A stretch of 64,000 nt of DNA from Octopus vulgaris (lineage: Eukaryota): contig OX597841.1 in NCBI GenBank assembly GCA_951406725.2, positions 310,001 to 374,000 of the forward strand, in the 5' to 3' direction. The notes under the pieces were generated by a model. It was not told where the DNA came from. It saw only the letters and a list, made by a program, of their open reading frames with translations, and did no database searches. Shown in pieces: positions 1 through 58,201 of the stretch. Position 1 is the stretch's first letter; every line of letters starts with the position of its first letter. The position numbers and the translations under genes are program-made.

Positions 1-375
1 TGACTGGTATCAAGTCGAAATAATGAAGTCAAACGAAAATAGGGATGTTTTGAAATCATGTTGTAGTTGAAAGGACGGGTGGCATGCAAGATTCTAGGAG
101 TTCCAGCAAAACTTATTATAAAAAGAATTAATAACAATGGTTTCAAATCTTTTTCCACAAGGGCAACAATTTGGGGCAGGCCATGAATCTCACAGCGGTT
201 TGCCGCGGATAAAATTCTTTACAATACTGCTTCGCCTTCCCAATAAATAAGTTTTACAGGTCAAAAATGTGACACACATAACTGAATTGATCTAAATATT
301 TGTTTATCAGTATTACTGTTATTATGAAAATAATAATATGCATTTGTGTGCGCGTGTATGTGTATGCATACATAC

Positions 376-554
376 CTCCTCAATTGGAAGATGTTTCCAG
401 AAATCAAGGATAGGATGTCGGAAGAAGTTGGGACAAAAGACACCTCTGCATTTGTCCACATTCCAGGTTGAAGGACTTCCTATATTCATGAATGATTTAA
501 AGACTTTTGAACGAGCTCCCATTGATATGGCATAAGTTTTAATCCATTGGGTAT
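376..554 (-). CDS. Gene A coding exon 2 (secreted PAN/apple-like + unnamed-domain family)
   Basis: tttcag acceptor and GTATGT donor; 179 nt as in all four paralogues; encodes (N)TQWIKTYAISMGARSKVFKSFMNIGSPSTWNVDKCRGVFCPNFFRHPILDFWKHLPIEE. Exons 3-5 are expected left of the window. Confidence 0.88.
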
Positions 555-581
555 CTGAAATAATGATAATAATAACACAAC

Positions 582-636
<55 letters not shown>

Positions 637-1024
637 ATAGTAGTCATGATGATATTGGCTTCAAAACTCAATGCCAGTAACATAATTTCGGCAAAGAACT
701 TGCGCGCACTTTCAGAGTTGGGTATGGCGTTGGCATCCTGAACTGAACAGATGAGGAGGTATAGGAGATGGACAGGAAAACGAGAAAGCTTCTAAAGATA
801 CATGGAGCCCATCATCCACGTACAGACACAGTTTGTCTGTATGCGAGGAGAGCAAATGGAAACCTTGCTAGTGTCGGGAATGATGGAGTATTGAATGCAG
901 CGGAAAAAAAGTAAGACAAAGGAACAAATACAAAATGGACATGATAAAGCATAATTCAACAGGGGACTACACAATCATTTCCATGTAGCCAGAACAGAAG
1001 TTTCTGGAAAACATAGGGCAGCAA

Positions 1025-1385
1025 TTATGGGGAGGCCATGAATCGATTACATCGACCCCAGTGTTGAACTGGTACTTAATATATCGACCCCGAGTGGATG
1101 AAAGGCAAAGTCGACCTGGGCGGAATTTGAACTCAGAACGAGTCAACTGGCGAAATACCTATTTCTTTACTACCCATAAGGGGCTAAATACAGAGAGGAC
1201 AAACAAGGATAGACAAACGGATTAAGTCGATTATATCGACCCCAGTGCGTAACTGGTACTTATTTAATCGACCTCAAAGTGATGAAAGGCAAAGTCGACC
1301 TCGGCGGAAATTGAACCCAGAACGTAGCGGCAGACGAAATACCGCTAAGAATTTCACCCGGCGTGCTAACGTTTGCCGCTTTCCC
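1025..1385 (-). mobile_element. SINE (family 1, 'gtcgactttgcctttcatcc...gtcgat' core), partly duplicated
   Basis: Same sequence recurs at about 34405-34760 (+), 37149-37306 (+), 41148-41298 (+) and 47719-47950 (-). Confidence 0.75.
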
Positions 1386-2424
1386 CACTGAAAATATTAA
1401 CAACTTTAAAAGAATTTTTCACCGATCTAGTGAACCATATCATTGCAGTAAACAGTAAGTATGTATGTAAGTAACTAAGTAGGTACGTATGTTTGTACCA
1501 ATATAGTAGGAAACCGTCAGTTTTAACCATGAACCGTGAACTTTGGCTTTTACTTACAAGTATACTAGAAGAAAAAAAAACGAGTAGTCCACTTGATAAA
1601 TGTCAAATAAATGAAGATGTTCACCTGCTATATAGAGTGATACAACGCACCACCTAACAGTTTCAAACTTCATCAAAATCACAACAACCGAAAATGTTCT
1701 TACCATTGTTTTGAAGTGCAAAAAAAAAAATTGCCCAAATAAGTCCGGAGTTGGACGATGAGGGAAGGGTGTAAAAAAGGAGTATACAAAACTTTTTCAT
1801 ACAAAGATGCCTCATCCCCACCCCAACATTTCGAAGGCTGTGGTTTAAAAAAAAAATAGCAAAATCTTTGAAGAAATTTTCTCCACAAATTTCTTTACAA
1901 TCGTAATCTGTGCGTTTGAAGGGGATTTGTATAAATGTTCATTAAAAGATACTCATCTTCCTGAAAGTTATGAGGGAGTAAAGTAGATCGTGTCAATTTT
2001 CCAAAATCCTTCTCTCCTACCCCACAGGAAAATTCTTTCTTATAAATCCCGAAATACTCTGAAGCCACAACATCTAAGCAGTATTTTTAGAAACCTTTTT
2101 TTAAAAGTATGCATTTTTCTGGATGTCATGAAGCAACAAATTCGGGAGTGTATACATCTGTAGTGATGCCCTTTTATTTATACGATTTTTCCAATTCATG
2201 TTTATTTTATTTATTGTTTACAATACTCACTCTCTCCCCACTCTCTCACGCACTCACACACTACAAAGCTGTAAGAAGGGCTGCTGGATTGAAAGCACCG
2301 TGTTGCTTTGAGGGGAAGGTAAAACTTGACAAACTGCTTCTCCCTCTGTTGTTGGACTACCGTGATGTTTGTTTTACAGACAGAGATTATAACTGATAAA
2401 ATAATTCCTCTCTCCTTTGCTCGA

Positions 2425-2605
2425 GAAAGGGTGGGACAAGTTTGATCTGTTGTCAGGATTGTATCGAAGCAGAGGAAAATGGCCTAGGATGGTATATAAA
2501 AAATCATCTGTATACACGCAGAAGAGAGTCGATTCATATGAAAAAGAAAGTTACCTCGGCGGAATTAATCATGATGATAATGAAAAAAATAATAATAGTA
2601 ATAAT
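2425..2605 (+). mobile_element. R4/Dong-like LINE fragment in gene A intron 1
   Basis: Encodes ICCQDCIEAEENGLGWYIK; truncated homologue of the longer remnant at 31770-32460. Confidence 0.55.
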
Positions 2606-2616
2606 AATTCACTTAC

Positions 2617-2947
2617 TTCTGTAGAAGGACATCTCGTTGCGGTCGTTTGTTCTGACAACTGTCATAATATCTTTCGGTGAGTAATTCTTGCAAACACGGC
2701 TGACATTGTTGTAAGTGAAGAATTCCGATTGGCTGCTTAGAGAAATCGCGGCACATTTCAGTAGACATCGAGTGGAGAAGAATTGTTCTGTCGGAGGTTC
2801 CTGAAGGTAACGGTAGGAATACCCAGGAGCCAAAGATCTGTAGCTGCCTGTATAAAATTGCTGGTTTGAGGCAACGGTCAGAATTGTAGTAAGGGTTAAT
2901 AGCAGCACTGTGGTCACGGTTGGAATGGTAGAAGGAAACTGGAACAT
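2617..2947 (-). CDS. Gene A coding exon 1: signal peptide + degenerate PAN/apple-like domain
   Basis: ATG at 2947 preceded by acceptor ttctag|agccaag; hydrophobic VTTVLLLTLTTILTVAS; motif C-x10-FFTYN-x5-C; GTAAGT donor at 2616; 331 nt, phase 1. Confidence 0.9.
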
Positions 2948-5247
2948 CTTGGCTCTAGAATCAGTAGAGGACTATACTTATAAATATTTGTGTACGCATG
3001 TGTATGTGTGCGTGCGTGTGTGTGTGTGTGTGTGTGTTAGAAGATGAGGGAGAAAATTTAGAGAGAGATGAGATGAAGACAGAATTCAAAAGTGGGAGAG
3101 GTAAAGAGAAAGAGACAGAAGAGTAATTGATAGAGAGATAGAAATAGGGAGAAATAGGGAGAAATCGATCCTGGTATAAGGAGAGAAGTAGAGGAGAGGA
3201 GAGCATAGAGAAGGGAAGAGAATAGGTACGAGATAGCTAGAAATAGATAGTAATACAGAGAAGGAAGGAGATAAAGGAAGAGATACATTTATAAGGGGAA
3301 ATGAAAGGAGAAAAAGCTAATATCTGAATAAAAGAATGGCATGGTCACGGCTGGAATATCTTTCACTGAAGATCTGTTCGATCAGGATTGACCTGGCGCA
3401 TAATGATGTCGCTAACAGCAACAAACAAACAAACACACGAACGAAAATAACAACATGATAATACATTCATAACAATATATGGTGTGATGGCTACGGTCGA
3501 AACGGCTTTGATCATAGATCTGCTTAATCGCTACTGACCAAGTGTTAAACAGCAAGAAATATCGTCGCTCGCTTCTCCAGACAAACACATCATAAAGTCT
3601 GACTCAAGCCTCCAGGCCGGAGCTTATTCAGGTTGCCAAGGGTTATAGTGGACCCTTCTCCAGCTGTCACTTAAGGGTTATTTTCAATAGAGTGGAGTCA
3701 AAATGAAGTATCTTGTCGAAGGGTTCAATGCACCACCCGATTCAGAATTCACAATCTTTTGACCGTGAGTGAGCTAGCGCTCGCGCACATGCATGCACAC
3801 ATGCACACAGACTCACACACACACACACATACGCGTACGCACAAATGTATTCTTACCTTTGTTGTGGGTAGATGGGTTGATTTTGCTATTCGTGGGTAAC
3901 GAGAGACGTTGTCAGGTCTGTCCACTATGACTGTCCAGTAATGTCCTCTCCTCGGATGACCGTCCACTTATGAAGGATACCCGCAAATTCCACTTTCAGA
4001 ATTTTCCACAGATGTCACCACTGTCTCTAGATGTCAAGTCAGGACCCCTACAAATGCCAATATTGTTCACTGCATTCAAATGTTACAGAGGCCGACTAAT
4101 CCTTTTTTTCCTTTCAGGCTCAATAAAACAAGTAGTAGCTGAGCAGTGGGGTTCATATGATCAACTAGCCCTTTCCTACAAAATTTCAGATCCTGTGTTT
4201 ATAGCAGAAAGAATATTATCTACTGCTTCCTGAATTACCACGCAGGTAGGCACTGTCTCTAGATATCAATCCAGATTTCCTACAAATGACAATATCACCA
4301 CTGTCTCTACAAGGGAAACCGGAGCGAAAGGTTTCGAACTGTTCACTGATAGCAGCACTGCTCGCTTCTGTCACCAGTATCTGCAGCTACGACAACTCTG
4401 TACAATGGTCAATAACATACACAGTGAGAACAACACTTCCCATTTATGATATTATGTTTTCACCCACACGGAACTAAACTAACTGTCTCACATGAATGCG
4501 AACAGTCACACTTCACTGAGAAGATTAGATACCTATATGTCCGTTCAATAAGAAGTGTTCAGTATTGTTGTTGGTTGTGGCGGTGGTGTTGGTGTGTTTG
4601 TTGTGATGGTGATGATTGATGTAGTGGAGATGAGTGTGTGTAAAATTTTGAAGTGGTGTATAGATTTCATATGTTAATAAGAGACGGTAGTCAGGAGAGG
4701 ATTTGAATAAAAATCCATTTATTTAGGGCTTTCGGCCCTCTCAGGGATTCATCATGAATGATTTCTTATCGGAAATTTATAACTTTTATAAAGAAGTGAG
4801 TGGAAAAGAACCGGGAGTGAATTTGTTTTCTTGGGTTTGGGAATGAGAGTGATTGAAGGGGAGATATCTGAGATGCCCTTTGTCATTTTGATTCTATAGA
4901 TATATGTATATATTCCTGTGTGTATGCATGTGTCTATGTACGCGTATGTATGTATATGCGTATAAGCAGGCGTGTGTTCTGGCTTTCTGAAAGAGAGAAA
5001 GAAGTGTTCTTCTGGGATGGGTGAATTCGATGACAGGTCAAAGGAATCAAAACTTATTATGAATGAAATTAAATTTCTTTTAGTTATGGTGTGACTGACA
5101 AAATGTTTGGTCGGTTGTTCTGTTGGCGAGCTGAAGGAAATATAATCTATGGAATTATTTGGAAAACAGAATCTATGGAATTATTTGGAAAGGCATTTAA
5201 ATGTATGTTTGTGTTTGTGTCTAACCGTATGCGTGAGAGTGTGTATG

Positions 5248-5309
<62 letters not shown>

Positions 5310-6190
5310 TGTGTGTGTTTGTGTGTGTGTATGCGTGTCGGTTGTTTAAGTGAATTCTTCCAGTTATTTTAGTAACAGTAACGAGAACATCATTAATAAT
5401 AAAAATATATCCAGTAATAATCTGGTTTGGTTTCTTCTGCGAAAGTAAAGTTTTTTATAATATTTTAAAAATTTTATATAAACATATTTTCACACGTTTA
5501 CTTTTGATAGAAATTTTCCTGTAAAATATAGTTTCGTTGTCTTTCGGCCGTCTCATTCTCCTATGGTCATTTGTAGAAAGCGAAGATGTTGAATCTGCTG
5601 TTTCCGCTTATATCTAGACGTTTGCTCAGCGAAATCTTACGTAATTCGTTTTGTCGGATGTGCTGTCTGTGGATCCTTGCTCATTGGCAAAGGGAATTGT
5701 TGGTTTTGCCAAATAGAATTCTCTTTGCAATTTGGGAAGGTAATGCAGCATATTAGATTCTGTGTCTTAGAGTTCATATTCGCATTAATTGGAGGAAGGA
5801 TCTACTTTAAAATTATGTATGAGAACCAGTCTCGAAATATTTGAAGTTGTTGTTACTACACATTCCACACCTATTGTCTCCAAAATCCTTCACACAGAAT
5901 TCTGAATTATCGTCTGCTGCCAATTTTGCCCTTGTGATCTGTTTTTAAGATTTATTTGGTCGACGTTTGCTATTCCTTATGAGATTTCCATCAACAGAAT
6001 GTTTCATTTTGGGACATTGGAAAAGTATTGATAACTTTGTTTTCTTCTTCCCTTCTTTCCTGAGCGTCCAATGATTCTTTATTTGTTCCACGTCCTTGCG
6101 TTGTTGTTTTTTTGTTTTTTTGTTTTCTTGTTTGGATTAACTATATATATATATGTATATATATATACATATATATATATACATATATGT

Positions 6191-9544: not shown

Positions 9545-10000
9545 TTATAGAATAGTCCTTCTGAATGGGATCTGGATGTTATTCCATTCGGACTTTCGGT
9601 TGAGAGTAGGTTTGTATTCTTGTATACAAACAGCTTCTGTGACCTGTCTCAACATTGCATCGGTGGGGTGTCTTGATAGGATGTTCAACTTAAGCTCCCC
9701 TAAGGATCCCTTGTGGCAGTCTACAGCATGTTGGTAGAAGATGGAGTTTGGCTTCCTTTCAATGTATTCCACATGTAAATTGTAAAACCAAGGGCACTGT
9801 ATACCAGATTAAGTGCCAGGAGGGAGTTTGCGCGACTAACCCAGAGTCATACATAGGTGAGACCTCTAGAAGCATCAATGATAGGTTCAAAGAACACCTG
9901 GACAACTACATTGAAAGGAAGCCAAACTCCATCTTCTACCAACATGCTGTAGACTGCCACAAGGGATCCTTACGGGAGCTTAAGTTGAACATCCTATCAA
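9545..10000 (+). mobile_element. Penelope-like GIY-YIG endonuclease fragment with inverted duplicated end
   Basis: CKTKGTVYQIKC...YIGETSRSINDRFKEH (GIY-YIG); 9673-9766 is the reverse complement of 9907-10000. Confidence 0.8.
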
Positions 10001-10499
10001 CACAAGATTAAAGTGAAGCCACGAGCGGGTATGGATTTTGTAGACAGGTTCCTAAGTTTTAAGACACATTGCTTAAAAGCTAGTAAATATGTTGTATGAT
10101 TTGTAATGGTGTACATTATCTAATGGTGTGTCGGCACGCGAGCGAAGTATGAAACAATATTGATAAATGAAAATGTTAGAGCATAAAATCAGTTCAGTAA
10201 ATTAATTTAGTTCAAGCTGACAGTATTACGTCTAAGAGGTTCATACTTATATATCGACTGACAGTCACCAGATGAGGTTAGTTGGTTGAATTAATTCTTA
10301 TGTTGATTATCGTTGACATGACTGGCTCTCAGGTTTCGAAATTCATGTTTGGGCAGCAGGAAATATTTCAATGCTTAAATCGATGAGTTCGATTAAACTC
10401 AGCAGTCAGCAGAATCAGTGCTGTCATAGGTTCAATACATGGTTGCATTTATTGAAGCATAAACAGATTGAAAAACAACGTAGAAATGTTGCATTAATT

Positions 10500-12125: not shown

Positions 12126-12687
12126 CAAATTTCGAGTGAACTTTCGTTATTTTCCCCTCTATGCCCACGTGAATAGTTTTTGAGTATATATTGTCTGGGA
12201 GACTCTTCTTATAGAAGAAAAAAGAGCTAAATTCTTTGGCTCTATATCTAAAGGTTCAGTATATAGTAAAGCAAATTTTTTTGCTGAAGCCTAATTATAT
12301 AAAGTAACACATATATATAGATATATTGTTTGTGTAATAAGGCTACCTTTTGCTTAATATTTAGAATATATCGCAATATCTTACAAATTTTCAAGCCGAT
12401 CACGTGTTATCTGTCTCCATTTTGGTTTAAAACACAAAACGGAGACGAACGCAGTTCATTCATTTGATCACCTTGAAAAAATTGTTGAGGTATTAAGCTA
12501 CTTTCTTCACGTGAAACCATAAATAGACTTAATACAAATATACAATATTTATTCACAAATGCGATGTTGAGAACCCATTCTAATTGTTTGACATTTACGA
12601 CAATATGTATATACACACATAAACACGCGCACATAAAAACACACACACACACACATATATCTAGTCAGACGGGAAATGGAAGAAAAA

Positions 12688-13710: not shown

Positions 13711-13734
13711 CAACAACAATAGTGTCAATGGATA

Positions 13735-13802
13735 TCATGGGCCGGGATATTCCTGCTGCCTCAGGCTGATGAATATGGCCATGGAGTCTGCTATGCCATA
13801 AC
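13735..13802 (-). CDS. Gene B coding exon 5 (terminal)
   Basis: acttgcag acceptor; (G)YGIADSMAIFISLRQQEYPGP*; TGA at 13737-13735. Confidence 0.85.
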
Positions 13803-14003
13803 CTGCAAGTAACAATAACAACATCAATAACCAAAGAAATTGAAATAAATCGTGGAAAGTCTTCATACGCGGTTACTCGTATTAATAGAAATGGCAGCCA
13901 AATGGGAAACATACAGGAAGGTCAAGATTAAAATCAGTTGAATCGAAGCTGATTGGCTGCCGAACAATAAGTACAGAAATAACCTCTGCGATTACTATTC
14001 ACA

Positions 14004-14057
<54 letters not shown>

Positions 14058-14128
14058 AAGGGAGCGAGAAAGAGAGAGAGAGTGAGAGAAAGCGAGAGAG
14101 ACACACACAAAAGGAAAATGTCACTTAC

Positions 14129-14292
14129 CATCGGACCACTTGATTTTCGATTTTGCATCAGAATAACGAATTATAGGATAATGATCCATTTCATCATATG
14201 AACAGTATACTTGGGCTTCAACTACGGCTAGCCAGCCCAACTCACCCGTACAACCACCGTAGTGGTTCGTTATATAGAAGCGACGTGCACTC
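14129..14292 (-). CDS. Gene B coding exon 4
   Basis: tttgtag / GTAAGT; 164 nt; SARRFYITNHYGGCTGELGWLAVVEAQVYCSYDEMDHYPIIRYSDAKSKIKWSD. Confidence 0.9.
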
Positions 14293-14848
14293 CTACAAAG
14301 TTGGAGAAGAACTCGTTTGGGTTTCAAAATGAGAAAATAGAAGCATTTAATAAATATAGCATTATGTTCCATGCACACATTTGAATCTGTCTGTATTTAA
14401 TTAAAATAGCCATTTGTGTATCATATTTAAAGTATAAATGCACTGTGTAGAAACTAGTTACTTTAGTAGTATATTCTCTGAGGTAACATCTCCTATGTAT
14501 TTGCTTTGTTTCGAATAATAAAATTCGTTCCAGCAGCGGACAACGAGAGGAAAAGAAGTTTTCTCAGGGCAAATATTGCAGTAACTGGCTTATCGGGAGT
14601 GTGTCTACGTTAGGTATGATATATAGATGTCTATACCAGTCTGTTAGAATCTGAATTGACAACTCCAACGGCCGTCTATAGAATCCTTTGTTCAGACTGA
14701 AGGTAAATTCACAAGATCAAGAAATATCGTGAATAAATATATAGAGTTAAAAAACAGATTTGTATTAGTAGCATAAGAAAAGTGCATTTAGCTCAATACG
14801 ACAATACGTCTCTACCTAGTGAAAGAGAAAAAAATATTTAGAACATAC

Positions 14849-15012
14849 GAAATTCCTTTAAGTGTGAAATACTGTGGCCTGACTGAAGATAGGTCATCCC
14901 ATGGAGAACTTTTCAAGTTTGCATAATTGAACCAGGTGTGAATTTTTGAATTTCGTCCTTCAAAAATCATAGTCACCACAGCTGTTTGGTTTTTATAAAT
15001 CACCAGTTTCAC
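14849..15012 (-). CDS. Gene B coding exon 3
   Basis: ttttcag / GTATGT; 164 nt; VKLVIYKNQTAVVTMIFEGRNSKIHTWFNYANLKSSPWDDLSSVRPQYFTLKGI. Confidence 0.9.
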
Positions 15013-15040
15013 CTGAAAAATAAGAGTAAACATATAACAG

Positions 15041-15075
<35 letters not shown>

Positions 15076-15536
15076 CACACATACACACGCACGCACACAC
15101 ACACATACACACAAATAGATCATGTTCTATTGATCGAGGTAATTTAACAGCTATTTCATTGGCTACGAGCCTAACGACTACTCCATTTTCTCTTCATCAT
15201 TTCTTTGAATGTAAGGAATTAATACTAATGATATTAATATATATCTATATCTATCTATATATGTGTGTGTGTATGTGAGTGTGTTTGTGTGTATGTATGT
15301 ATATACATATATATGCAGGTGTGTTAACAACTGTTGCCTAAGGCAAGAATTTTCTCCACGGTAAATCGCAGTGAAAACTGCCGTTTTTACGGTTAAAATA
15401 CGTCTGAAATATATGTGAAGTGATCCAAAAGATAGTTTATCTTTATGGTTGTTATTATGATAATGTGTGTGTGAAGGAATCTGATTTCGCTTCTGTGTGT
15501 GTGTGTGTGTGTGTGGGTGTGTAAGTGCTTACATAC

Positions 15537-15715
15537 CTCATCAACTGGAAGTTGCTCCCAGAAATCAAGAATAGGATGTCGGAAAAAGTTCGGACAGAAG
15601 TAACCATTGCACTTGTCTACATTCCAGGTTGAAGGACTTCCTATATTGAGTAAGGAATTATAGATTTGCGAACCCGCCCCCACTGATATGGCATAAGTTT
15701 TAATCCATCGGCTAT
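15537..15715 (-). CDS. Gene B coding exon 2
   Basis: tttcag / GTATGT; 179 nt; (N)SRWIKTYAISVGAGSQIYNSLLNIGSPSTWNVDKCNGYFCPNFFRHPILDFWEQLPVDE. Confidence 0.9.
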
Positions 15716-15719
15716 CTGA

Positions 15720-15928
15720 AATAATAATAATGATAATAATAATAATAATAATAATGATAATAATAATGATAATAATAATGATAATAATAATAATAATAAT
15801 AATGATAATAATAATTATAATAATGATAATAATAATGATAATAATAATAATAGTAATTATAATAATGATAATAATAATGATAATAATAATAATAATGATA
15901 AAAAATAATAATAATAATAATTATAATG

Positions 15929-15963
<35 letters not shown>

Positions 15964-16000
15964 TATAATAATGATAATAATAATGATAATAATAATAATG

Positions 16001-16091
<91 letters not shown>

Positions 16092-16158
16092 TATAATAAT
16101 AATAATAATAATAATAATATTAATAATAATGATAATAATAATAAAAATAGTAATAATG

Positions 16159-16190
<32 letters not shown>

Positions 16191-16224
16191 TATAATAATG
16201 ATAATAATAATGATAATAATAATG

Positions 16225-16307
<83 letters not shown>

Positions 16308-16308
16308 T
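15720..16308. repeat. ~590-bp imperfect (AAT)n microsatellite abutting the gene B exon 2 acceptor
   Basis: Directly visible. Confidence 0.95.
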
Positions 16309-19155
16309 ACACCGGGGACGTTTGCATTACACCGGGGATGTCAAACGAGATTATACCGGGGACGTTAAACGGAGATTACACCGGGGACGTTAAACATGGG
16401 AGTGCGATAAAACAGTGCTCCGAAATATATCCACAAACATCGGAGACAAAGATATCGCATGGAGCTAAAAAACAACTGACAAAGGATTGGACTATATCCG
16501 AGTAAGTAATACTCATTGAAATTTATTACTATTTTCAAAACGAAATTATGTATTTTAACTCGATATCATCTCCACCTCTAACACAACACATGTAAACATG
16601 CTTGATACATTACGATCCATCAAACAACATGTACAAAAAAACTACGAAGAAATTAAATAATACCGGTATTATTCAACCCAAGAATAACAATCAAGCGGTA
16701 CGTACTTTAAACTTACAACATAAAATGTACGAAAAACTACACGTGCAAAACAATGTGACAACAGAAATGAACGTGCCGGTACCCTACGAAAATGACGACC
16801 GTCAAAATAATGGGCCGGACGTTGTTCCTCATGTCCCGCAAATAAAACCCAAAAGACATAAATGGACACGAGAGGAATACATTTCTATCCTACACGCTTA
16901 CTTTACAGCAGTGCTCTACCCAAACAATGAAAATACAACAACACATACATACAAAATAAGGAAGAAAAATAACATAAATAAAGACCTGGATACAACAATG
17001 AACCCTAATAAACTAGCAAATATACGGAGATATATTCTCAACGCAAAAAATATCAGAAATAGAAATAGAACATTTAAAAGAAAAAATACACCAGGAAAAT
17101 GTAGATAGAAGCCACAGAACAATGCCAAATAATATAAACACTGAAACAGTAAAACACGAAGACAAACGTAACATTTCCAACAAAAACGATGTAAACAAAA
17201 AACAACAAACCCAGACCGTAAGGATACACAATAATACACGACAAACAGCAAGCCAAATCACGACAAACAAACATACAGATGAGAAAGAAAGCGACACAAA
17301 TCTAAAACCTGGAAACAACGAAGGGGAGCCTAATGATTATGAAACTATAAAAAGTAGAATAGTCAAAGAACTGAAAACCACAGAGCTCAAAATGGACCAC
17401 CGACCATACCTCCCAAAAATCAAAATAGACAAAACAACAACATCAATAATAAACAACATAAACCTAGCCGTCACGGAACTAATAGCCACTGAAACAAAAA
17501 GCGATATCACTGAGCTAAATGACTTAGTATACGCAGCAACCACTGCAGCCACAAAAGAAGCTGGATACTAACTCAAACCCATCCAAACAGGAGTACCACC
17601 ACCCAAACATACCCTGTGGATAAATAACATCGAAAACAAAATACATAAAATGCGAAGAGATCTGTCGATTCTTAATGAAATCAGTAGAGAATCAACGCTA
17701 CTGAGTAACAAAAAGAAAACAAAAATACTCCGCAAATACAACACCAGAGAAAAAGATTTACCTGAGATAAAAGAAAAGCTAATGCAAGATATCCTTGCCA
17801 AAGCACAAAGGATCCGCCGGTACAAGAAACGCCAACGTTTCTTTGTACAAAACAAAAAGTTCAACTCCAACCCCAACCCCAAAAAGTTCTACCAAGAACT
17901 TGGCAAAAATAAAATAGAAATCACTGCAGCACCAACGGCAGAAGAAGTGGAAGAATTCTGGAGAGAAATATCTACTTCAGAAGGAAGGAAAACTGATACA
18001 AATAGCGACATAACACGAGCAAAACAAAAATCTGTTCTCAGTATTTAAGGAAGCTGACAAATACAAACAAGAAATCATACCACCTAACAAATATGAAGAA
18101 GAAGAAGAAGAAGAAGAAGAAGAAGAAGAAGAAGAAGAAGAAGAAGAAGAAGAAGAAGAAGAAGAAGAAGAAGAAGAAGAAGAAGAAGAAGAAGAAGAAG
18201 AAGAAGAGACGACAAAAGCTATAAAACAAATGAAATCCAAACTAAAACTAGAATAGCAACGAACCATGATAAAACGATGGCAAGAAAAGCCCCTTCATGG
18301 CAAAAACTGGACTAAACTAAATGCAAAAGAAATAGACAAAGAAAAATCCCAACAATGGTTGAGAAGCTCAGGACTCAAAGCAGAGACTGAAGGATTTTTA
18401 ATTGCAGCACAAGACCAAAGCGTCCCCACCAGAAATTACCAAATACGTAATGAAAAGACATATAATAAGTAACTGCAGAATATGTGGAGATGGACAAGAA
18501 ACAATAAATTATATTATCTCTGGCTGCCCAGTCCTGGCTAAGAAGGAATATATTCACAGACACGACAGAGTTGGGACCTATATATACTGGAAACTATGCC
18601 ACCATTATGGAATAACAACAGAAAAAAGATGGTATAGGCACACACCAGAAAAGGTCACAGAAAACGAGAAAGCAACCATACTCTGGGATATGCCGATACA
18701 CACAGAGAGAGAAATTAAGGCCAACAGACCAGATATAGTTGTCAGAGATCATGAAGGAAAGAAATGCTTTCCTAATTGATGAATCAATATCGGCAGATGA
18801 CAACGTGTCTCTAAAAGAAATGGAGAAACTCTCAAAATACAAAGACCTGGAAATAGAGGTAACCAGAATGTGGAATCTAAAAACAGAAACAATTCCTATC
18901 ATAGTAGGTGCATTAGGCATGATAAAAAAATATTCAGACAAATACATAACAAAAACACCAGGACTTACAAATATATATAACATACAGCAATAGCAGTAAT
19001 AGGCACTGCACACATCCTACGTAAAACACTTCCAATACATACGAGCATCACAGCAAACCTCTGCACATACCCAAGGCACAATGAGCTGTGCTCTGTAGTG
19101 CTGGGAAAGCACGTATAAAGAATAAGACTGCCGAATAAAAATAATCCCATAATAA
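16309..19155 (+). mobile_element. R4/Dong-like non-LTR retrotransposon, internally deleted (no RT core), in gene B intron 1
   Basis: 5' accggggacgtt repeats; N-terminal KRHKWTREEY; C-terminal CRICG..ETINYIISGC..RHD zinc motif and NRPDIVV..EKLSKYKDL restriction-like endonuclease; frameshifted; internal (GAA)n at about 18095-18205; inserted in (AAT)n. Confidence 0.85.
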
Positions 19156-19592
19156 TTCAGCTTGTTTCTCTGTTCCTTAGCCCATTCGTAACGCTTTCAC
19201 ATGAAGCTCTCTCGCCCAGCAGGGTAGGACCGGTCGTCATCTAGCGACTGTAGTACGAAGGAAAGGAAGAAAGACGGATTGCATTGCTGAAGGAATGTTA
19301 CATCCGGAAAGAAAACAGCAGAATGAAAGATGTGGTTTAAAAAGGGAATGTTTGCTGTAACTCGACAAAGACTAAGTGAACAAGAACGACAAATAAAATT
19401 GAAATGCTGGTTAACAGCAATCGAAACAATAATATCAGCAACAGCAACAATATGGTTTCGAAATCTTGGCCAGCAATTTCGAGGGTAGATGAGTAAGTCG
19501 ATTTCATCGACCGCTGATGTTCAACTGGTACTTTGATCTGACCGAACAATGTAAAAATAAGTCAACAGTAATAATAAAGAAGATTCACTTAC

Positions 19593-19923
19593 TTCTATAG
19601 AAGGAAATCTCGTTGGTGTCATTCGTGCTGACGACTGTCATTATATTTTTCGGTGAGTAATTCTTACAAACACGGCTGACTTTGTTGTAAGTAAAGAATT
19701 CTGATTGTCTCTGTAGAGCGATGCCGCTACATTCCAGTAGACTTGATTCGGTGTGGAATCGTTCTGTTGGAGGTGTCCCAATATAATCATAGGAATAACC
19801 AGGTCCCAAACGATTGTAGTAAGCTTCATCAAATTCCTGATCTGAGGTGACAGCCAGGATTGTTGTAAGAGCTAACAGCAGCACTTCCATTGCAGCAGGA
19901 CGGGTAAAAAGAAACAGGGACAT
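19593..19923 (-). CDS. Gene B coding exon 1: signal peptide + degenerate PAN/apple-like domain
   Basis: MSLFLFTRPAAMEVLLLALTTILAVTS...ECSGIALQRQSEFFTYNKVSRVCKNY...; GTAAGT donor; 331 nt. Spliced CDS 331+179+164+164+68 = 906 nt, 301 aa, no internal stop. Confidence 0.9.
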
Positions 19924-30319: not shown

Positions 30320-30357
<38 letters not shown>

Positions 30358-31424: not shown

Positions 31425-31755
31425 ATGTTCCAGTTTCCTTCTACCATTCCAACCGTGACCACAGTGCTCCTATTAAGCCTTACTACAATTCTGACCGTTG
31501 CCTCAAACCAGCAATTTTATACAGGCAGCTACAGATCTTTGGCTCCTGGGTATTCCTACCGTTACCTTCAGGAACCTCCGACAGAACAATTCTTCTCCAC
31601 TCGATGTCTACTGAAATGTGCCGCGATTTCTCTAAGCAGCCAATCGGAATTCTTCACTTACAACAATGTCAGCCGTGTTTGTAAGAATTACTCACCGAAA
31701 TATATTATGACAGTCGTCAGAACAAACGACCGCAACGAGATGTCCTTCTACCGAA
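31425..31755 (+). CDS. Gene C coding exon 1: signal peptide + degenerate PAN/apple-like domain
   Basis: ttctag|agccaagATG; GTAAGT donor at 31756; 331 nt; 2 aa differences from gene A. Spliced CDS 331+179+164+164+56 = 894 nt, 297 aa. Confidence 0.92.
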
Positions 31756-31769
31756 GTAAGTGAATTATT

Positions 31770-33779: not shown

Positions 33780-33970
33780 GCGTTGCACGCGTCGATGATA
33801 GAAATATCTATAAATGGATTTTCGTTAAAAGCTCCCTTGGACACTGGAAGCTTGGAAAACTTCCTTTCAAAATCTGTGGTTAAATCTCTTCGGCTTCCTA
33901 CTTCTCCATATAATGGTACTATATCGATGGCTGCAGCTAATTTAAAGTCGTCTGTCAAAGCATGCTGAAA
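33780..33970 (+). mobile_element. Gypsy-type aspartic protease remnant
   Basis: ISINGFSLKAPLDTGSLENFLSKSVV (retropepsin LDTG motif); absent from the gene A intron. Confidence 0.7.
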
Positions 33971-35124: not shown

Positions 35125-35194
<70 letters not shown>

Positions 35195-35230
35195 TTATTA
35201 TTGTTGTTGGTATTATTATAATTATTTCAG

Positions 35231-35409
35231 GTAGCCAATGGATTAAAACATATGCCATATCAATGGGAGCTGGTTCGAAAGTCTATGATTCATTCCTGAA
35301 TATAGGACTTCCTTCAACCTGGAATGTGTACGAATGCAGAGGTACCTTTTGTCCCAACTTCTTCCGGCATCCTATCCTTGATTTCTGGAACTATCTTCCA
35401 ATTGAGGAG
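35231..35409 (+). CDS. Gene C coding exon 2
   Basis: tttcag / GTATGT; 179 nt; (S)SQWIKTYAISMGAGSKVYDSFLNIGLPSTWNVYECRGTFCPNFFRHPILDFWNYLPIEE. Confidence 0.92.
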
Positions 35410-37010: not shown

Positions 37011-37151
<141 letters not shown>

Positions 37152-38959: not shown

Positions 38960-39123
38960 GTGAAACTGGTGATTTATAAAAACCAAACACCTGTTGTGAC
39001 TATGATTTTTGATGGACGAAATTCAAACCTTAAAAGCTGGTTTTCTTATGTAAACTTGAAAAGTTCTCCATGGGATGACCTATCTTCAGCCAACCCAGAG
39101 TATTTCAAGATGGAAGGATTTGC
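38960..39123 (+). CDS. Gene C coding exon 3
   Basis: ttttcag / GTATGT; 164 nt; VKLVIYKNQTPVVTMIFDGRNSNLKSWFSYVNLKSSPWDDLSSANPEYFKMEGF. Confidence 0.92.
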
Positions 39124-39195: not shown

Positions 39196-39236
<41 letters not shown>

Positions 39237-39239
39237 ATA

Positions 39240-41046: not shown

Positions 41047-41109
<63 letters not shown>

Positions 41110-42445: not shown

Positions 42446-42609
42446 GAATGTACGTCGCTTCTATATAACGAACCACAACGGTGGCTGTTCTGTTGAGAGT
42501 GGCTGGCTAGCCGTAGTTCAAGATCAAATGTTCTGTGCATATGATGAAATGGATCACTTCCCTGCAATTCGTTATTCTGATGCAAATTCGAAAACCATCT
42601 GGAACAACA
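42446..42609 (+). CDS. Gene C coding exon 4
   Basis: tttgtag / GTAAGT; 164 nt; NVRRFYITNHNGGCSVESGWLAVVQDQMFCAYDEMDHFPAIRYSDANSKTIWNN. Confidence 0.92.
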
Positions 42610-50635: not shown

Positions 50636-50685
50636 CTACGGCTTCAGGCTGATGAATATGGCCATGGAGTCTGCTATTCCAAAAC
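50636..50685 (-). CDS. Gene D exon 5
   Basis: acttgcag acceptor; (G)FGIADSMAIFISLKP*. Confidence 0.75.
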
Positions 50686-51032
50686 CTGCAAGTAATAATA
50701 ACAACATCAATAACCAAAGGAATTGAAATAAATCGTGGAAAGTCCTCCTACGCGCTCACTCATATTAATTGAAATGGCAGTCAAATCTCCATAAAGTGTA
50801 ATGAGAAACATACAGGTGGGTCACGGTCAGAACGCTTTTGATCATAAATCTGTTGAATCAAGGCTGATTGGCTGCTGAACAATAAATACAAAAATAACTT
50901 CTGCAATTACTACTCACATTAAGAGAGAGAGAGAGAGAGTGAGCGCGTGAGATAGATAGAGAGAGGGAGAGAGAGAGAATAGGGAGAGCGACAGAGAGAA
51001 AGATAAAAACACAAAATGAAAACATCACTTAC

Positions 51033-51190
51033 CGTCGTTCCAGATGACACTCGAGCTTGCATCAGAATATTGAATTTCAGGATAACGATCCAGTTTCTCA
51101 TGTGCACAGTATCCTTCAGATTCAATTATTTGTAGCCAGCCACTAGCCACCACACAGCCAGCCTTATTCGCTATATAGTATCGCTGTGTA
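51033..51190 (-). CDS. Gene D exon 4
   Basis: ctgcag / GTAAGT; 158 nt (6 nt shorter, in frame); TQRYYIANKAGCVVASGWLQIIESEGYCAHEKLDRYPEIQYSDASSSVIWND. Confidence 0.78.
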
Positions 51191-51766
51191 CTGCAGATTT
51201 GGAAAAATACTTGTTTGGGTTACAGAATGAGAAAATATAAGCATTTAATAAATATAGCATTATGTTCCATGCACACATTTGAATCTGTATGTATTTAATT
51301 AAAATAGCCATTTGTGTATCATATATAAAATATAGACACGCTGTGTATAAACTAGTTACTTTAGTAGTATATTCTCTGAGGTAACATCTCCTATGTATTT
51401 GCTTTGTTTCGAATAATAAACATCGGTGACACGAAAATTCGTTCCAGCAGCGGACAATGACAGAAAAAGAGGTTATCTCAGGGCAAATATTGCAGTAACT
51501 GGCCTATCGGGAGTGTGTCTACGTTAGGTATGATATATAGACGTCTATACCACTCTATTAGAATCTGCATTGACAGCTCCAACGACCGTCTATAGAATCC
51601 TTTTGTCAGACTGAAGTTATATTCACAACGAGATCAAGAAAATATCGTGAATAAATATATAGAGTTTAAAAAACAGGTTTGTATTAGTAGCATAAGAAAA
51701 GTGCTTTGAGCTCAATAGTACAATACGTCTCCACATAGTGAAACAGAAAAAATATTTATAACATAC

Positions 51767-51930
51767 CTACTTGCTACTCCTTGTCCGAAATAATATGGAG
51801 TTGAAGATAGGTCATTCCATGGAGAACTTTTCAAGTTGTTATAAAGGAACCAGTTATCCTTTTTTGAATTTCGTCCATCAAAAATCAAAGTCACCACAGC
51901 TGTTTGGTTTTTATAAATCACCAGTTTCAC
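51767..51930 (-). CDS. Gene D exon 3
   Basis: ttttcag / GTATGT; 164 nt; VKLVIYKNQTAVVTLIFDGRNSKKDNWFLYNNLKSSPWNDLSSTPYYFGQGVAS. Confidence 0.8.
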
Positions 51931-51975
51931 CTGAAAAGTAAGAGTAAATATATAACACACACACACATATAAGTA

Positions 51976-52827
51976 CAAGGTGGCCAAAATGCCACTGAGA
52001 GTTTGCATTTTCTGATTATTCATTTATTTGTTGATATTCTTCTTTTCGTTTTAGGAATTTTATCGTCTAGATCATGGAAATTAATTATAGAAAACTATGG
52101 CACAGCACAATGCATCCAAGTTGTGAAATTGTTCTGTCAAAATCAGGGGTCAATTATTCAAATCCAGAGAACATGTCATTGGCATTTTCAAGTGTCAGAT
52201 TCCTCAAGTGAAAACACAACTAGGAACTTAGTTCCTCGTTTTGAAAAACAGGGGGCAGTAAGTGATCTCCCACATCTGGAAGTCTTTGCACTATCAGAAC
52301 TGATAAGACAAGTGGACGAAGGCGAGAAAGTAATTAAGAGAATCTGGGTATGTCGACTCCAATGTGGTCCAGACAGCGTAGGATTTCACAAACTTCACTG
52401 CAAAGAGTCTCCAGCAGCCTTAAACTTTTTCCATACAAGGTACTGTTGGTTCATCAGTTGAAGTCCCACAATTATGAACATGGACTTCAATACGCTGTCA
52501 GAATTCAGGAATTGGCACGAAGTGACTCAAATTTTACACGAAAATTCATCATGTCTGATGAAGCTCTCTTTCATTTCAATGAGTTCGTCAATTGTCGGTT
52601 TTCAGGCTCTGAGAAACCGAGAGCACTACACCAAAGAGAACAGCACTCCATAAAGCGTGAGGCTTAAAATGGACGCCGTTTAATTGATGTCATTTTTCAT
52701 ACGTAATCAAAAGGTATGATGAGAAAAGATCTAATGCAAATTAATCTGCTTTGTATCCCGTGTATATTGAATTAAAATTTCATACAAGTATTTGTAAAGA
52801 TATGGTAGTTACATCTGGCCCACCCTG
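51976..52827 (+). mobile_element. Internally deleted Tc1/mariner-superfamily transposon
   Basis: TA-caaggtggcca...tggcccaccctg-TA inverted ends with TA target duplication; transposase remnants LVPRFEKQGAVSD, LFPYKVLLVHQL, FIMSDEALFHFN. Confidence 0.85.
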
Positions 52828-53337
52828 TATGTATATACATATATATATGTATTTGAAAGAATGAATCAAAATAGCTGTTCTTATAATTTTTCACTTTTCA
52901 TATTTGCTTGTTTATAAGTTTAAATAAAAGGTGACTCTGATGCGAGTCTCGCTAAAAGCTGGATTTCAAACTGACAATTTAGAGCTTATTCAATGCTTAA
53001 ATTGGGAGTTTTTAATTATAAGTATACAGATATACAAACACCAACACCCACACCTATATGTACACACACACACACACACAAACATATCCTGTGGGTATGT
53101 GTGAGTGCTGGTGTCTGTATGTGGGTATGCTTGTAATTAAACACTCAATATTTAAGCAGTCTATCAACTCTAAATTATCGGACTGATGACTGCTTTATAA
53201 ACTTACTACAGTAAGCATCTCAGGTTATGTACAGTGGAAAAAATTTATAAGGACAGCCAAAAAATAGCAAAAAAAATGGAAAAAAATGATTCATATTTTT
53301 CAAATATATAATACAGTTACCACAGATTTTCTATTTG

Positions 53338-53384
<47 letters not shown>

Positions 53385-55172
53385 GGTAGAGAAAACAGAC
53401 ACACTACTATTACTACTACTACTACTACTACTACTAGGACAGCCATTTCTATTCATATTTTTCAAATATATAATACAGTACCACAGATTTTCTATTTGTA
53501 CTACTACTACTACTACTACTACTAAACTACTACTACTTCTACTACTACTTCTACTACTATACACTACTACTATACACATACACCCACATACACACACACA
53601 CACACACATATATGTGTGTGTGTAGAGAGAGAGTGGGTGAAAGAGAGATAAAGAGAAACAGAAACAGAAAGAGAAAGAAAGAGGTGCAAGCATGCTGGAT
53701 TTGTAACCAAGTGATACTAGTTCAATCTCAGTGCTTGGCACCTTCTGTCATAGTTGTTGGTCAACCAATGCATTGTGGGTAAATTTGGGAGACATTTATT
53801 TTTATTTCCGTGTGTTTATAGCTTGTATTCATGTCTTTGCTTCTGTGTATATGTCTGCCTGTGTCACTTCTACTACTTCACAAATGATGTTGTGGTGTTT
53901 ATGCCCCAGTAACTTAGCGGTTCGGCAAAATATCTCGACAGAATACATACCACAGGATTTGCCCTATTAAAATCATACAAGGTGGTGTCATAACATGACC
54001 ACTATCCAGTGACTGAAAAAGGCAGACGATAAAGCTCTATGTACAATGAATATTTGTGTGTTGAGGATTGCTGGATAAATCATTGTCTGTTAAATACTGT
54101 TGGTTGAATCAATGAATCTATACTTTCCGAAAAACGTGTAACCTTCAGAGAAGCCATTGAAACGTTCAGATTAGTAGTTAGGTGTACAGGTCAAAACGCC
54201 AGACGATATGTCCTCTTAAATCCCTTATCTCCATATATAGTATAGTGTCACAACAACAGATCCAAATCAGTCTCAAAATTTTGCGCTGTATTTCAGTTGT
54301 TCCCAAGTGCAACTGTCAGCCAGTTTTTCAGTCCCTCCTAAACTTATTCATATTGTTTTTGATCTTCACACTTGTGTCTCCCTTGGGATATCCATCAGAC
54401 GGCTTACCTTGCAAAGAGGTTTGTGGCTAATCTCATTTAATGCTGTTGATCTGAGTTCCAATAGGTTCCTGGCTCACCTCTTCCCTCAAGGATTTGTTTG
54501 TTATTCAGTCTTGCCATCTCACAAGAAGGATGACAAACTAATTCAGTTTCAAATTCAAGTCTCACCAGGGTCCGCATGCTTTACTTTCTGCCGAATACAA
54601 TAAAACTTTTACCAGTCATGTATCGTAAGCCATGGATCATAAGTTGATTTTATCGAATTTTTTTCCCATTTCCTAGTTACTCCCAGAAAAGAGAGCCTTT
54701 TGTCTATGATAAATATTCTTACTACTGTGGTTGTGGCGGATAAAATTCATCACAACACTCTTTCTTGTGTCTGATCTATAATTCTTTCATGCATGACAGC
54801 CGTTGCACCTGAACATTAGTCATATCTATTGATTTTCTATGAGAAAGATGACTTTCAAAAGTCATTCCAGGATTGTCCCGCTTGGAATCTGATGCTGACG
54901 ATAGCAAGTGTGCTTGGAATGCATGCATCTGTCCATGGGAGCTCTTTGAAACGTTTGTAGGTGTGTTAACAACTGTTGCCTAAGGCAAGAATATTCTCCA
55001 CGGTAAATCTCACTGAAAACCGCCGTTATTACGGGTAAAATATGTCTGAAATATATGTGAAGTGATCCAAACGATAGTTTATCTTTATGGTTATGATTAT
55101 GATAATGTGTGTGTGAAGGAATCTCATTTCGTCTGTGTATGTGTGTGTGTGTGTGTATAAGTGCTTACATAC

Positions 55173-55351
55173 CTCATCAATTGGAAGATTCTCCCAGAGA
55201 TCAAGAAGGGGATGTCGGAAAAAGTTCGGACAGTAGATACCATTGCATTTGTCTACATTCCAGGTTGATGGACTTCCTACAGCTCACAATGACTTATAGA
55301 TTTTTGAACCAGCTCCCATAGATAGGGCATATGTTTTAATCCATCGGCTAT
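55173..55351 (-). CDS. Gene D exon 2 (contains premature TGA)
   Basis: tttcag / GTATGT; 179 nt; (N)SRWIKTYALSMGAGSKIYKSL*AVGSPSTWNVDKCNGIYCPNFFRHPLLDLWENLPIDE. Confidence 0.78.
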
Positions 55352-55430
55352 CTGAAATGATAATAATAATAATAATAATAATCACAACAACAACAACTAC
55401 AACCTCACCACCACCACCACCACCACCACC

Positions 55431-55462
<32 letters not shown>

Positions 55463-55489
55463 CAACAACAATAATAATAATAAGAAGAA

Positions 55490-57800
55490 TAAAACCCAGA
55501 GCAAATACCTGCTTGGTTGACTGAAGGAACCACCTACCTATTACCTAAAACCGAAGACACAAAAAACCCAAAGAATTACCGGCCAATAACATGTCTCAAC
55601 ACTACCTACAAAATCCTCACATCCATAATAACGGAGAGAATGTACGCTTTCCTTGAAGAAAACCCTATCCTTCCACAAGCTCAAAAAGGTTGTAAAAGAA
55701 ACTCTTATGGGTGCAAAGACCAATTGCTCATAAACAGAATGATTGTAGAGAATTGCCGGAGCAAAAACAAAAACCTGAGTATGGCATGGATAGACTACAG
55801 GAAAGCGTTTGACAGTGTCCCACATAAATGGATACTCAAGGCTCTTGTCGTCTCAAAACTCTTACAGAATAGCATGACCATGTGGAACACAAGTCTCTTT
55901 CTAAGCCATAGTAATGGGATGAGCCAGTCCAACAGCATCAACACCAAACGAGGCATCTTTCAAGGTGACTCCCTCTCACCATTACTTTTTTGCATGGCAC
56001 TGAGCCCACTCTCAAACGAATTGGATAGTACCAGATATGGATACAAAGTTTTTAGTAAGTCAATAAACCACCTTTTCTATATGGACGACCTAAAGCTGTT
56101 TGCCAGGAAGGACCAAGAGCTAGAAGGGCTGCTAACAACTGTTAAAGAGTTTAACAATGATATCGGAACGATTTTGGCCTTGAGAAGTGTGCTAAAGCAA
56201 CTTTTGTAAGAGGCAAGCTCAGGCAAACAGCTTCTGTTAAATTAGATATTGACACTACCATCAAGGAACTTGACCCACAAGAAAGTTACAAATACCTAGG
56301 AATCAACGAAGGAGATGGTATACATAATGCTACTATGAAGGAAAAAATAAGAAAGGAATACTATAGGAGAATAAGGCTTGTACTGAAGACTGAACTCAAC
56401 TCCAAAAATTGCATTGAGGCCATTAACACCCTGGCACTTCCAGTAGTCCAGTACAGTTTTAACATCATTAACTGGAACCTTACGGAACTCCAACGCTTGG
56501 ACAGGAAAACAAGAAAATTACTGACATCCAAGAACATGCACCACCCTAAAGCAGATGTAGACCGCCTGTATCTACCTAGAAGCAGCGGGGGAGAGGAATG
56601 ATGCAATTAGAGCTGTGCTATAAGACCTCCACTGTAGGAATGAACAGGTACCTATCTAGTACAAAGGAATGGATACTGCGACTTGTGTGCGAACACGAAA
56701 GCAGCAAAAAGCTGCATTCTATTGTCAAGGAAGCTTATTAGTTCGAAAGGGAACTAGACATTAACCTTGAATCAGATGAAGAGCCGGAAACCACTGCTAC
56801 CAAGCAAGCAAAGCGAATCAAGCAGACTGCCAGAAAGAACGGGCAGAATCAAAGTGAGAGGCGGTGGAGCCAGAAACCCCTGCATGGACAATATATTCTC
56901 CGAAGCCAAAATGCTGATGTAGACCAAGCAACAACCCATCAGTGGCTGAAGAGCACAGGATTGAAAGCAGAGACTGAAGGTTTCATAATGGCAGCACAAG
57001 ATCAAAGCTTGTTTACCAGAAATTACCAGGCTAACGTTCTCCGAAACGGTACTGATCCTAAATGCAGATTCTGCAACACATTTGACGAAACAATAGACCA
57101 TCTCGTTTCGGGATGTCCTGTGCTGACGCCAAACGAATATAAAAATCGCCACGATAGGGTAGGACAGTATATACATTGGAAGATATGTAAACACTCCAAA
57201 TTCGGCACTCCTGTTAACTGGTATGAACATCATCCTCAGCCAGTTGTTGAAAGCAAAAATGCCACCATCCTCTGGGATTTTCCAGTCAAAACTGACAGAA
57301 CGATCAAGGCTAATCGACCAGACATAATTGTTAAAGACAGGGGATTAAATACCTGCAGACTAATAGAGGTAAGCGTACCCACTGATAAAAATATATCTGT
57401 AAAGGAATTTGACAAACTTAGTAAATATAAGGACCTGGAAAACGAAATACAAAAGATGTGGATTCTTAAAACAAAAAACTGTTCCTGTTATTGTAGGTGC
57501 CCTAGGTATGATAAAAAAGGGATGTCAGAAACACCTAGACAATATCACTGGACTACCATGTCTCAAGAAAATCCAAAAGATTGTGCTAACACGTACTGCC
57601 CACATCCTTAGAAAAACCCTATCAATGTAAATGTTTGTGTTGTATTACATGGAGATATTTCTCTACTTCCCCTCCCCAAGCTTTCAGCTATATTTCAACA
57701 ACTCTTAACCTTCACTTGCCCTAGGGCGCTGGGTGTGCCCCGGCAAGTGTTTGCATCAAACATGCAGATTAAAAGTAAATGACAATAATAATAATAATAA
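55490..57800 (+). mobile_element. 5'-truncated R4/Dong-like non-LTR retrotransposon in gene D intron 1
   Basis: RT motifs NYRPITCL, WIDYRKAFDSV, GIFQGDSLSP, YMDD; CRFC..ETIDHLVSGC zinc motif; NRPDII..KLSKYKDL endonuclease; frameshifts; flanked by (AAT)n. Confidence 0.92.
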
Positions 57801-57870
57801 TACTGGTACTTTGATCTGACCGAACGATGTAAAAATAAGTCAACAGTAATAATAAAGAAGATTCACTTAC

Positions 57871-58201
57871 TTCTATAGAAGGAAATCTCGTTGGTGTCAC
57901 TCGTGCTGACGGCTTTCACTATAGCTTTCGGTGAGTAATTCTTACAAACACGGCTGACTTTGTTGTAAGTAAAGAATTCTGATTGGCTGTTTAGAGCATA
58001 GAAGGCACATTCCGGTAGACTTGATACGATGGGGAATTGTTCTGTTGGAGAGGTCCCAATATAATCATAGGAATAACCAGGTCTCAAACGTTTGTAGTAA
58101 GCTTCATCAAATTCTTGATCTGACGTAACAGCCTGGATGGTTGTAAGAGCTAACAGAAGCACTTCCATTGCAGCAGGACGGGTAAAAGGAAACAGGGACA
58201 T
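57871..58201 (-). CDS. Gene D exon 1: signal peptide + degenerate PAN/apple-like domain
   Basis: catag|agccaagaATG; MSLFPFTRPAAMEVLLLALTTIQAVTS...; GTAAGT donor; 331 nt. Confidence 0.85.

Follow-up and report, generated by a model that had tools for sequence, protein, structure and literature searches.

Exon exchange as a probable source of exon 2 divergence in a young pair of octopod paralogues

An exon that diverges faster than the intron next to it, and mostly by amino-acid changes, was reported in the initial annotation for exon 2 of a young gene pair, A and C, in Octopus vulgaris. The locus raises the question of whether selection drove this exon apart, as in toxin and immune-receptor genes, or whether the difference reached one of the two copies by another route. 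The window, meaning the whole 64-kb stretch of DNA analysed, contains four paralogues: A, B and D on the minus strand and C on the plus strand. Each gene has five exons where complete; gene A has exons 1 and 2 within the window and exons 3–5 outside it. The splice sites of gene B were inferred from GT/AG ends and homology. The relevant features are as follows.

82..5814, inverted relative to C 28510-35702: A-side block, with the upstream region, exon 1, intron 1, exon 2 and the start of intron 2
82..375, minus: portion of gene A intron 2 homologous to C, 9/293 differences from C
376..554, minus: gene A exon 2, 179 nt, AG/GT ends, start of the C-terminal domain
2617..2947, minus: gene A exon 1, hydrophobic leader and predicted PAN/apple domain
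13735..19923, minus: gene B, open frame, five exons (19923-19593, 15715-15537, 15012-14849, 14292-14129, 13802-13735)
31425..31755, plus: gene C exon 1, two residues different from A, omega 0.17
35231..35409, plus: gene C exon 2, 179 nt, AG/GT ends
38960..39123, plus: gene C exon 3, A-type, 46/54 to P0034
39026..39052, plus: hypervariable patch of gene C exon 3, residues 193-201 (P0034 numbering)
42446..42609, plus: gene C exon 4, A-type, 42/54 to P0034
43127..43182, plus: gene C exon 5, coding part
50636..58201, minus: gene D, five exons (58201-57871, 55351-55173, 51930-51767, 51190-51033, 50685-50636), in-frame stop in exon 2 at 55286-55284

The peptide of A exon 2 is identical at 59/59 residues to the Octopus sinensis protein XP_036371235.1 (P0034, LOC118768575). 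A contig of run X16, guessed to be RNA, spans 374-548 with no difference from A exon 2, and loose ends of the X16 contigs match the end of exon 1 and the start of an exon 3; if the guess is right, the exact match and the loose ends together support the splice sites and transcription. For B and D, the exon 1 peptides agree at 99/99 residues with predicted proteins of O. vulgaris. The last exon of B (13802-13735) runs four residues beyond the usual stop, as does that of the O. sinensis protein P0218. The stop in D exon 2 makes D a weaker comparator; the closest O. sinensis protein, P0185 (54/59 in exon 2), reads through this site, so the loss is recent or allelic.

Several repeats lie in the same window. 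Seven 147-bp tandem copies (12686-13712, 98% matches) sit right behind the stop of gene B; for D, related sequence lies at 50219-50595. A short dispersed repeat, which we take to be probably a SINE, occurs in intron 1 of both A and C and elsewhere (1043-1374, 34499-34726, 37149-37245, 41146-41303, 47720-47935). Stretches of C intron 3 (39230-42080) and C intron 1 (31952-32784 and 33377-34086) are absent from the aligned paralogue and include one 380-residue open frame, presumably related to reverse transcriptase; other fragments of the C introns bear what we take to be a resemblance to LINE sequences and a gag zinc knuckle. Inverted repeats are found at 9669-10004 and 44959-45173 (98-bp arms at 98% identity; a 71% self-inverted stretch). 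In the region 62874-63556, a 188-bp exact direct repeat (62874-63061 and 63236-63423), the second copy of which folds back into a near-perfect palindrome (63296-63553), either marks the end of a transposon or is an error of assembly.

Divergence of exons and introns in the A/C and B/D pairs

Genes A and C are sisters in exons 1, 3 and 4, with P0034 serving as proxy for exons 3 and 4 of A, and in ∼5.7 kb of flanking DNA at ∼6% divergence. Recounting returns the figures first given for the pair: exon 2 differs at 18/179 nt (3 synonymous and 15 non-synonymous changes) and at 12 residues, including the one whose codon is split across exons 1 and 2; exon 1 differs at 6/331 nt (four silent, two replacement); and intron 2 differs at 8/239 aligned sites (136-375) with one 1-nt gap, or at 9/293 over 82-375. 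The longest identical run is 204 nt, at window positions 2691-2894 in A exon 1, and reflects either constraint or a recent short conversion; the silent divergence of exon 1, 4.9%, fits that of the flanks and so gives no sign of recent exon 1 conversion.

Whether exon 2 is exceptional depends on the comparator. Against the intron stretch 136-375 the excess in exon 2 has a Fisher p of 0.007, and against the 9/293 sites p=0.002. Non-coding A/C DNA, pooled without two poorly aligned stretches (1687-1749 and 5201-5439), differs at 330/4718 sites (7.0%), or at 233/3859 (6.0%) once repeats and five columns around gaps are masked; against this whole masked pool the excess has p=0.038. Single non-coding segments range from 2.3% to 8.4%, and the intron 2 stretch is the lowest, below the rest of the non-coding DNA at p=0.004. 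This divergence is overdispersed: at least 18 changes occur in 380/3681 sliding windows of 179 nt and in 2/21 non-overlapping ones, and with overdispersion allowed through a negative-binomial fit the excess in exon 2 has p=0.10. The faster divergence of the exon is a real pattern, and a stronger one in the B/D pair, but the intron first set against it was a favourable comparator.

In exon 2, replacements make up 15/18 changes, which equals the neutral expectation (share 0.74-0.78, p=0.28-0.43). Replacement sites exceed the masked non-coding DNA (15/140 versus 233/3859, p=0.03), and silent sites, at 3/39, do not (p=0.51; versus 9/293, p=0.16). The differences fall at sites that are variable across the family, with an entropy of 1.67 versus 0.91 (p=1.5e-4) after removal of the A, C and C-like rows.

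CpG hypermutability was set aside as a cause, with 3/18 exon 2 differences in CpG context. An artefact of uncollapsed haplotypes is unlikely, since C has its own exons 3–5 and both A-type and C-type exon pieces co-occur in runs X2 and X7. The contig depth of C-like intron 2 is 2.5–4 times that of A-specific exon pieces (20 versus 8 in X7, 82 versus 22-27 in X2), where contig depth is not copy number, and the lack of an A-type intron 2 contig over 184-353 in X2 and X7 is a contig hole that proves nothing. One X2 contig, at 363-544, carries an A-type exon 2 with four letters different and then a different intron 2 start; it represents natural recombination, a further locus whose exon 2 is A-type, or a chimeric assembly.

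In the B/D pair, exons 2–4 differ at 28/179, 25/161 and 43/159 sites, and the adjoining introns at 9/136, 39/498 and 24/187. Silent sites of these exons differ at 22/112 versus 72/821 intron sites (p=0.001, on rounded NG86 counts). Because the silent sites are raised too, exons 2–4 would be older than the introns between them, or the introns constrained; such an excess is not what amino-acid selection by itself predicts.

Relatives of C exon 2 at other loci

A match of exon 2 of A or C to a third paralogue had been named in advance as the sign of gene conversion in place of selection. Such a match is found at the protein level: C exon 2 agrees with P0037 (LOC118768579 X2) at 57/59 residues and with P0039/P0007 (LOC118768576/78) at 56/59, versus 48/59 with A. 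The sequences matched here are protein predictions, probably from a sister species, and a gene model from a tandem cluster may be a chimera. The other exons of C are closest to A, at 108/110, 46/54 and 42/54 residues for exons 1, 3 and 4, and P0039/P0007 fall to 63-65% of C in exon 3 and 54% in exon 4. At the 11 A/C differences that lie within the exon, the C residue recurs in P0037 at 11/11 and in P0039/P0007 at 10/11. All three agree with A, and not with C, at the split codon.

In a tree of exon 2 (53 rows, after removal of three isoform rows), C is nested with the P0037, P0039 and P0007 rows (97/84) and A lies outside. Quick trees of the other exons (28, 31 and 27 selected rows for exons 1, 3 and 4, with one identical row left free in each) reject the same clade, at p-AU 0.022, 1e-5 and 5e-4 respectively. 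C exon 2 thus groups with three other loci, and the family exons, as judged from these alignments, carry conflicting histories. Exon 2 itself does not reject a clade of A and C, which is 13.3 log-likelihood units worse at p-AU 0.24. At residues 137, 144, 145 and 165, A has the family majority residue; at 137 and 144 it uses the codon of B and D, and at 145 that of D. A sister relationship of A and C in exon 2 would require A to have reverted exactly at several positions, once by a change of two bases.

Mosaic structure extends beyond this pair. Among 21 four-exon genes, some rows of which are isoforms of one locus, 19/210 pairs combine an exon that is >=90% alike with another that is <=66% alike. 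The dS between B and C over exons 1–4 is 0.43, 0.38, 0.10 and 0.21. A C-like exon 2 is present in four numbered loci (LOC118768576, 577, 578 and 579) with two different non-A 3' halves. The RefSeq isoforms P0035/P0039 (LOC118768576) and P0013/P0037 (LOC118768579) have differing first exons, or exons 1–2, joined to the same 3' exons, which is either variable-first-exon splicing or the product of chimeric models; one isoform from these two loci has exon 1 in a shifted frame.

The difference between A and C in exon 2 was therefore probably imported by exchange between paralogues rather than accumulated through rapid point mutation after the two copies arose: the amino-acid excess is not significant and C exon 2 matches other members, which makes a swapped exon likelier than one driven apart by selection. 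After the A/C duplication, exon 2 of C, or of A, would have been replaced from another member of the cluster, by gene conversion or by unequal recombination between paralogues. Both the exchange itself and its limits, at about the exon, are read from the pattern of matches. Such limits could arise if older paralogues are similar enough to recombine in their exons only; alternatively, the introns may keep homogenising and selection may keep the exon types apart, as in the L/M opsins. As candidate donors, B and D were rejected by the site patterns (AC|BD 11, AB|CD 1, AD|CB 1). Five residues of A are rare among the 44 other rows (T112 in 2, R125 in 0, F129 in 1, K130 in 1, V149 in 0), two of them at conserved sites, and exchange does not explain these without an unseen donor.

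Selection, chance and gene models as alternatives

The leading alternative is positive selection, in which point mutations after the duplication fixed replacements across the C-terminal domain (exons 2–4), and C exon 2 either spread afterwards by copying to other loci or kept its ancestral state while A changed. It is unlikely, though alive beside exchange, and mosaics formed by conversion are a process already known. The codon models were our own implementation, run on 2-4 sequences with recombination assumed absent, and have low power on that account. Within these bounds, the proposal of positive selection on exon 2 finds no backing. The omega of A/C exon 2 is 1.32 by NG86 (p=0.46) and 1.28 by maximum likelihood (p=0.70), not different from 1, and across A, B, C and D it is 0.47, below 1 (p=0.015). 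Site models on the four genes in the window give p=0.28 for M1a/M2a and p=0.19 for M7/M8, the latter a model pair that the initial annotation had recommended for all family members. Exon 2 is also the most conserved exon of the family (mean identity 0.70 versus 0.65, 0.60 and 0.44), the entropies of exons 1–4 being 1.20, 0.93, 1.26 and 1.95, with exon 4 the most variable.

A signal of selection appears further downstream. Among B, C and D, the omega of exons 3 and 4 exceeds 1 in 6/6 pairs (1.05-1.77), none of them significant singly. For exon 3 of these genes, M1a/M2a gives a likelihood ratio (LR) of 27, or of 17.4 without 11 codons near an indel (p=2e-4), a value reached in 0/22 null simulations. 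Multi-nucleotide mutation was rejected as the source, since it lowers the LR from 17.4 only to 15.5. The changes cluster at residues 193-201, which hold most of the site-model signal. The signal is not significant without gene D (p=0.25 for exon 3 of B and C only; p=0.09 for exons 3 and 4 together), and patchy conversion can mimic it, which makes it a lead. Site tests on exons 1 and 4 are not significant (p 0.10-0.25). Diversifying selection, if it acts, would target variable loops in exons 3–4, not exon 2. The broader idea of a diversifying family keeps the exon 3 signal and the variability of exon 4, and loses exon 2; no link of the family to venom was found in one salivary proteome supplement.

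For the A/C difference, selection after duplication can draw on this exon 3 signal, on the uniformly raised omega of exons 3 and 4, on the excess of replacement sites in exon 2, on the five rare residues of A and on the A+C clade that exon 2 does not reject. P0034 and C also differ at 8/54 residues in exon 3 and 12/54 in exon 4, as selection on the whole domain would give. Against it stand the null results for exon 2, its need for exact reversions in A or for repeated copying of the exon out of C, the identity of A exon 2 to the O. sinensis protein (59/59) and the raised silent sites of the B/D exons, which it leaves unexplained.

Chance with relaxed constraint is less probable still. Exon 2 would here evolve near the neutral rate and be compared with an unusually conserved intron stretch, which agrees with the 10% of non-coding windows that reach 18 changes, the negative-binomial fit, the neutral share of replacements and the low outlier position of intron 2. 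It explains neither the recurrence of the C residues in three other loci nor the excess in B/D exon 4 (43/159 versus 39/498), and the concentration of differences at family-variable sites indicates that the exon is not unconstrained. Least probable, and very unlikely, is a misleading match, in which neighbouring genes have had their exons joined in the RefSeq models and the C-like exon 2 belongs to a C orthologue or recent copies: the isoforms of LOC118768576 and LOC118768579 with different first exons, one in a shifted frame, would suit it, as would the failure to retrieve a protein with C's exons 3–4 (best 46/54 and 42/54), but four numbered loci carry the C-like exon with two different non-A 3' halves, and the B/D silent excess and B/C dS shifts come from window DNA alone.

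Exchange between paralogues carries a caution with it: where family members exchange exons, selection cannot be read from an exon that outpaces its intron in a young pair.

The protein family and comparable systems

A profile search gathers 83 protein clusters, of which almost all belong to three Octopus species and Argonauta and many sit on a single long contig in each species; a wider search gives 1051 representatives at E<=0.001. The AlphaFold model has a pLDDT of 86.9 (89.2 for the C-terminal domain alone). Its residues 30-116 align to the HGF N-domain 3hms (Z 10.8, rmsd 3.0, 83 residues), the top rows of the structure search for this segment are PAN/apple domains, and the N-terminal domain is, on the predicted model, a PAN/apple fold. 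The Pfam PAN cut-off is passed by 0/12 proteins, the best being PAN_3 at 17 bits versus 21.1. For the C-terminal domain, the top 14 Foldseek rows are FReD or intelectin at weak E values (0.01-0.11), and VIA gives FReD at Z 4.2-4.7, tied with TLDc at 4.8-5.2. No solved structure matches it at Z >=8, Fibrinogen_C has no Pfam match in 12 proteins and no PDB sequence match at E<=1, and PF00147 occurs in 1/30 Atlas matches, on 15% of its members. The modelled domain appears distantly fibrinogen-like, a resemblance that is weak but repeated. In 38 scanned matches it adjoins TSP1, EGF, C-type lectin, F5/8, ZP, Sushi and PAN modules, which marks it as a mobile extracellular domain.

With a putative signal peptide, read by eye from the hydrophobic N-terminus, the product would be a secreted two-domain binding protein. 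Its domains and variability suggest that the ligands are most likely diverse extracellular or microbial ones. No family motif or accession was found in one posterior-salivary-gland proteome supplement (PMC7693380), in a skin mucus supplement (PMC10138644) or in the accessible part of an ink supplement (PMC10142993). The family appears to be undescribed and without a name in the literature searched, which covered titles and abstract openings, with most subscription papers outside reach. What emerges as a lead is a large octopod family, predicted to be secreted, whose genes are mosaic at the level of exons and carry a signal of selection in exon 3.

Snail FREPs are secreted proteins with an N-terminal immunoglobulin domain and a fibrinogen-type C-terminal domain, encoded by a diversified gene family. 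By analogy, the cluster might be an undescribed octopod repertoire of recognition proteins, diversified combinatorially as a cephalopod counterpart of the FREPs; this is a doubtful proposition at present. A 5' cassette (promoter, leader, PAN domain and sometimes exon 2) would be joined to different 3' halves, themselves positively selected and fibrinogen-like. Conversion would bring this about, as would crossing over of head-to-head copies (A and C, for example), and alternative first exons might contribute as well. A head-to-head crossover between A and C would swap halves by inversion, without loss. The octopus proteins share with the FREPs a predicted secreted molluscan architecture of N-terminal module and putative fibrinogen-type domain in a diversified family; unlike them, they have a PAN/apple and not an immunoglobulin module, their likeness to fibrinogen is weak (Z 4.2-4.7), and they are known here from sequence and predicted models. 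If this is a true immune or sensory recognition repertoire, it offers a tractable handle on the diversification of ligand binding in cephalopods, which lack adaptive immunity.

Other tandem families offer partial parallels. Tandem clusters with proposed conversion are described in cephalopods for protocadherins (PMC9068888) and argonaut tyrosinases (PMC9635652). The octopus family resembles them in its lineage-specific tandem expansion and differs in that the passages on conversion there describe homogenisation, whereas exchange here would yield mosaic genes; the words PAN and apple have 0 occurrences in the two main texts. In the PfSSP array of snake venom and serum proteins, young pairs have a KN of 0.05-0.06 and a KA/KS of 1.5-1.7, according to PMC6609765. 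The A/C pair is close to these values, with a non-coding divergence of ∼0.06 and an omega of ∼1.3, but its omega is not distinguishable from 1 and exon 2 is under net purifying selection.

In gibbon L/M opsins (PMC3213168), exons diverge more than introns, silent sites included, and the abstract attributes this to gene conversion of the introns together with selection against homogenising the central exons. The octopus family differs in having many members and an exon that matches third loci, and its record here consists of sequence and, in part, predicted proteins. In bovine CEACAM32 and CEACAM1, the abstract of PMC7042247 describes a leader exon and introns that are alike and mature ligand-binding exons that are distinct. 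The identical 204-nt run in A/C exon 1 recalls the shared leader of that pair; the proteins are unrelated, and octopus exon 1 also encodes the PAN domain. The B/D pattern fits that of gibbon L/M opsins and CEACAM32, and not a pure amino-acid effect.
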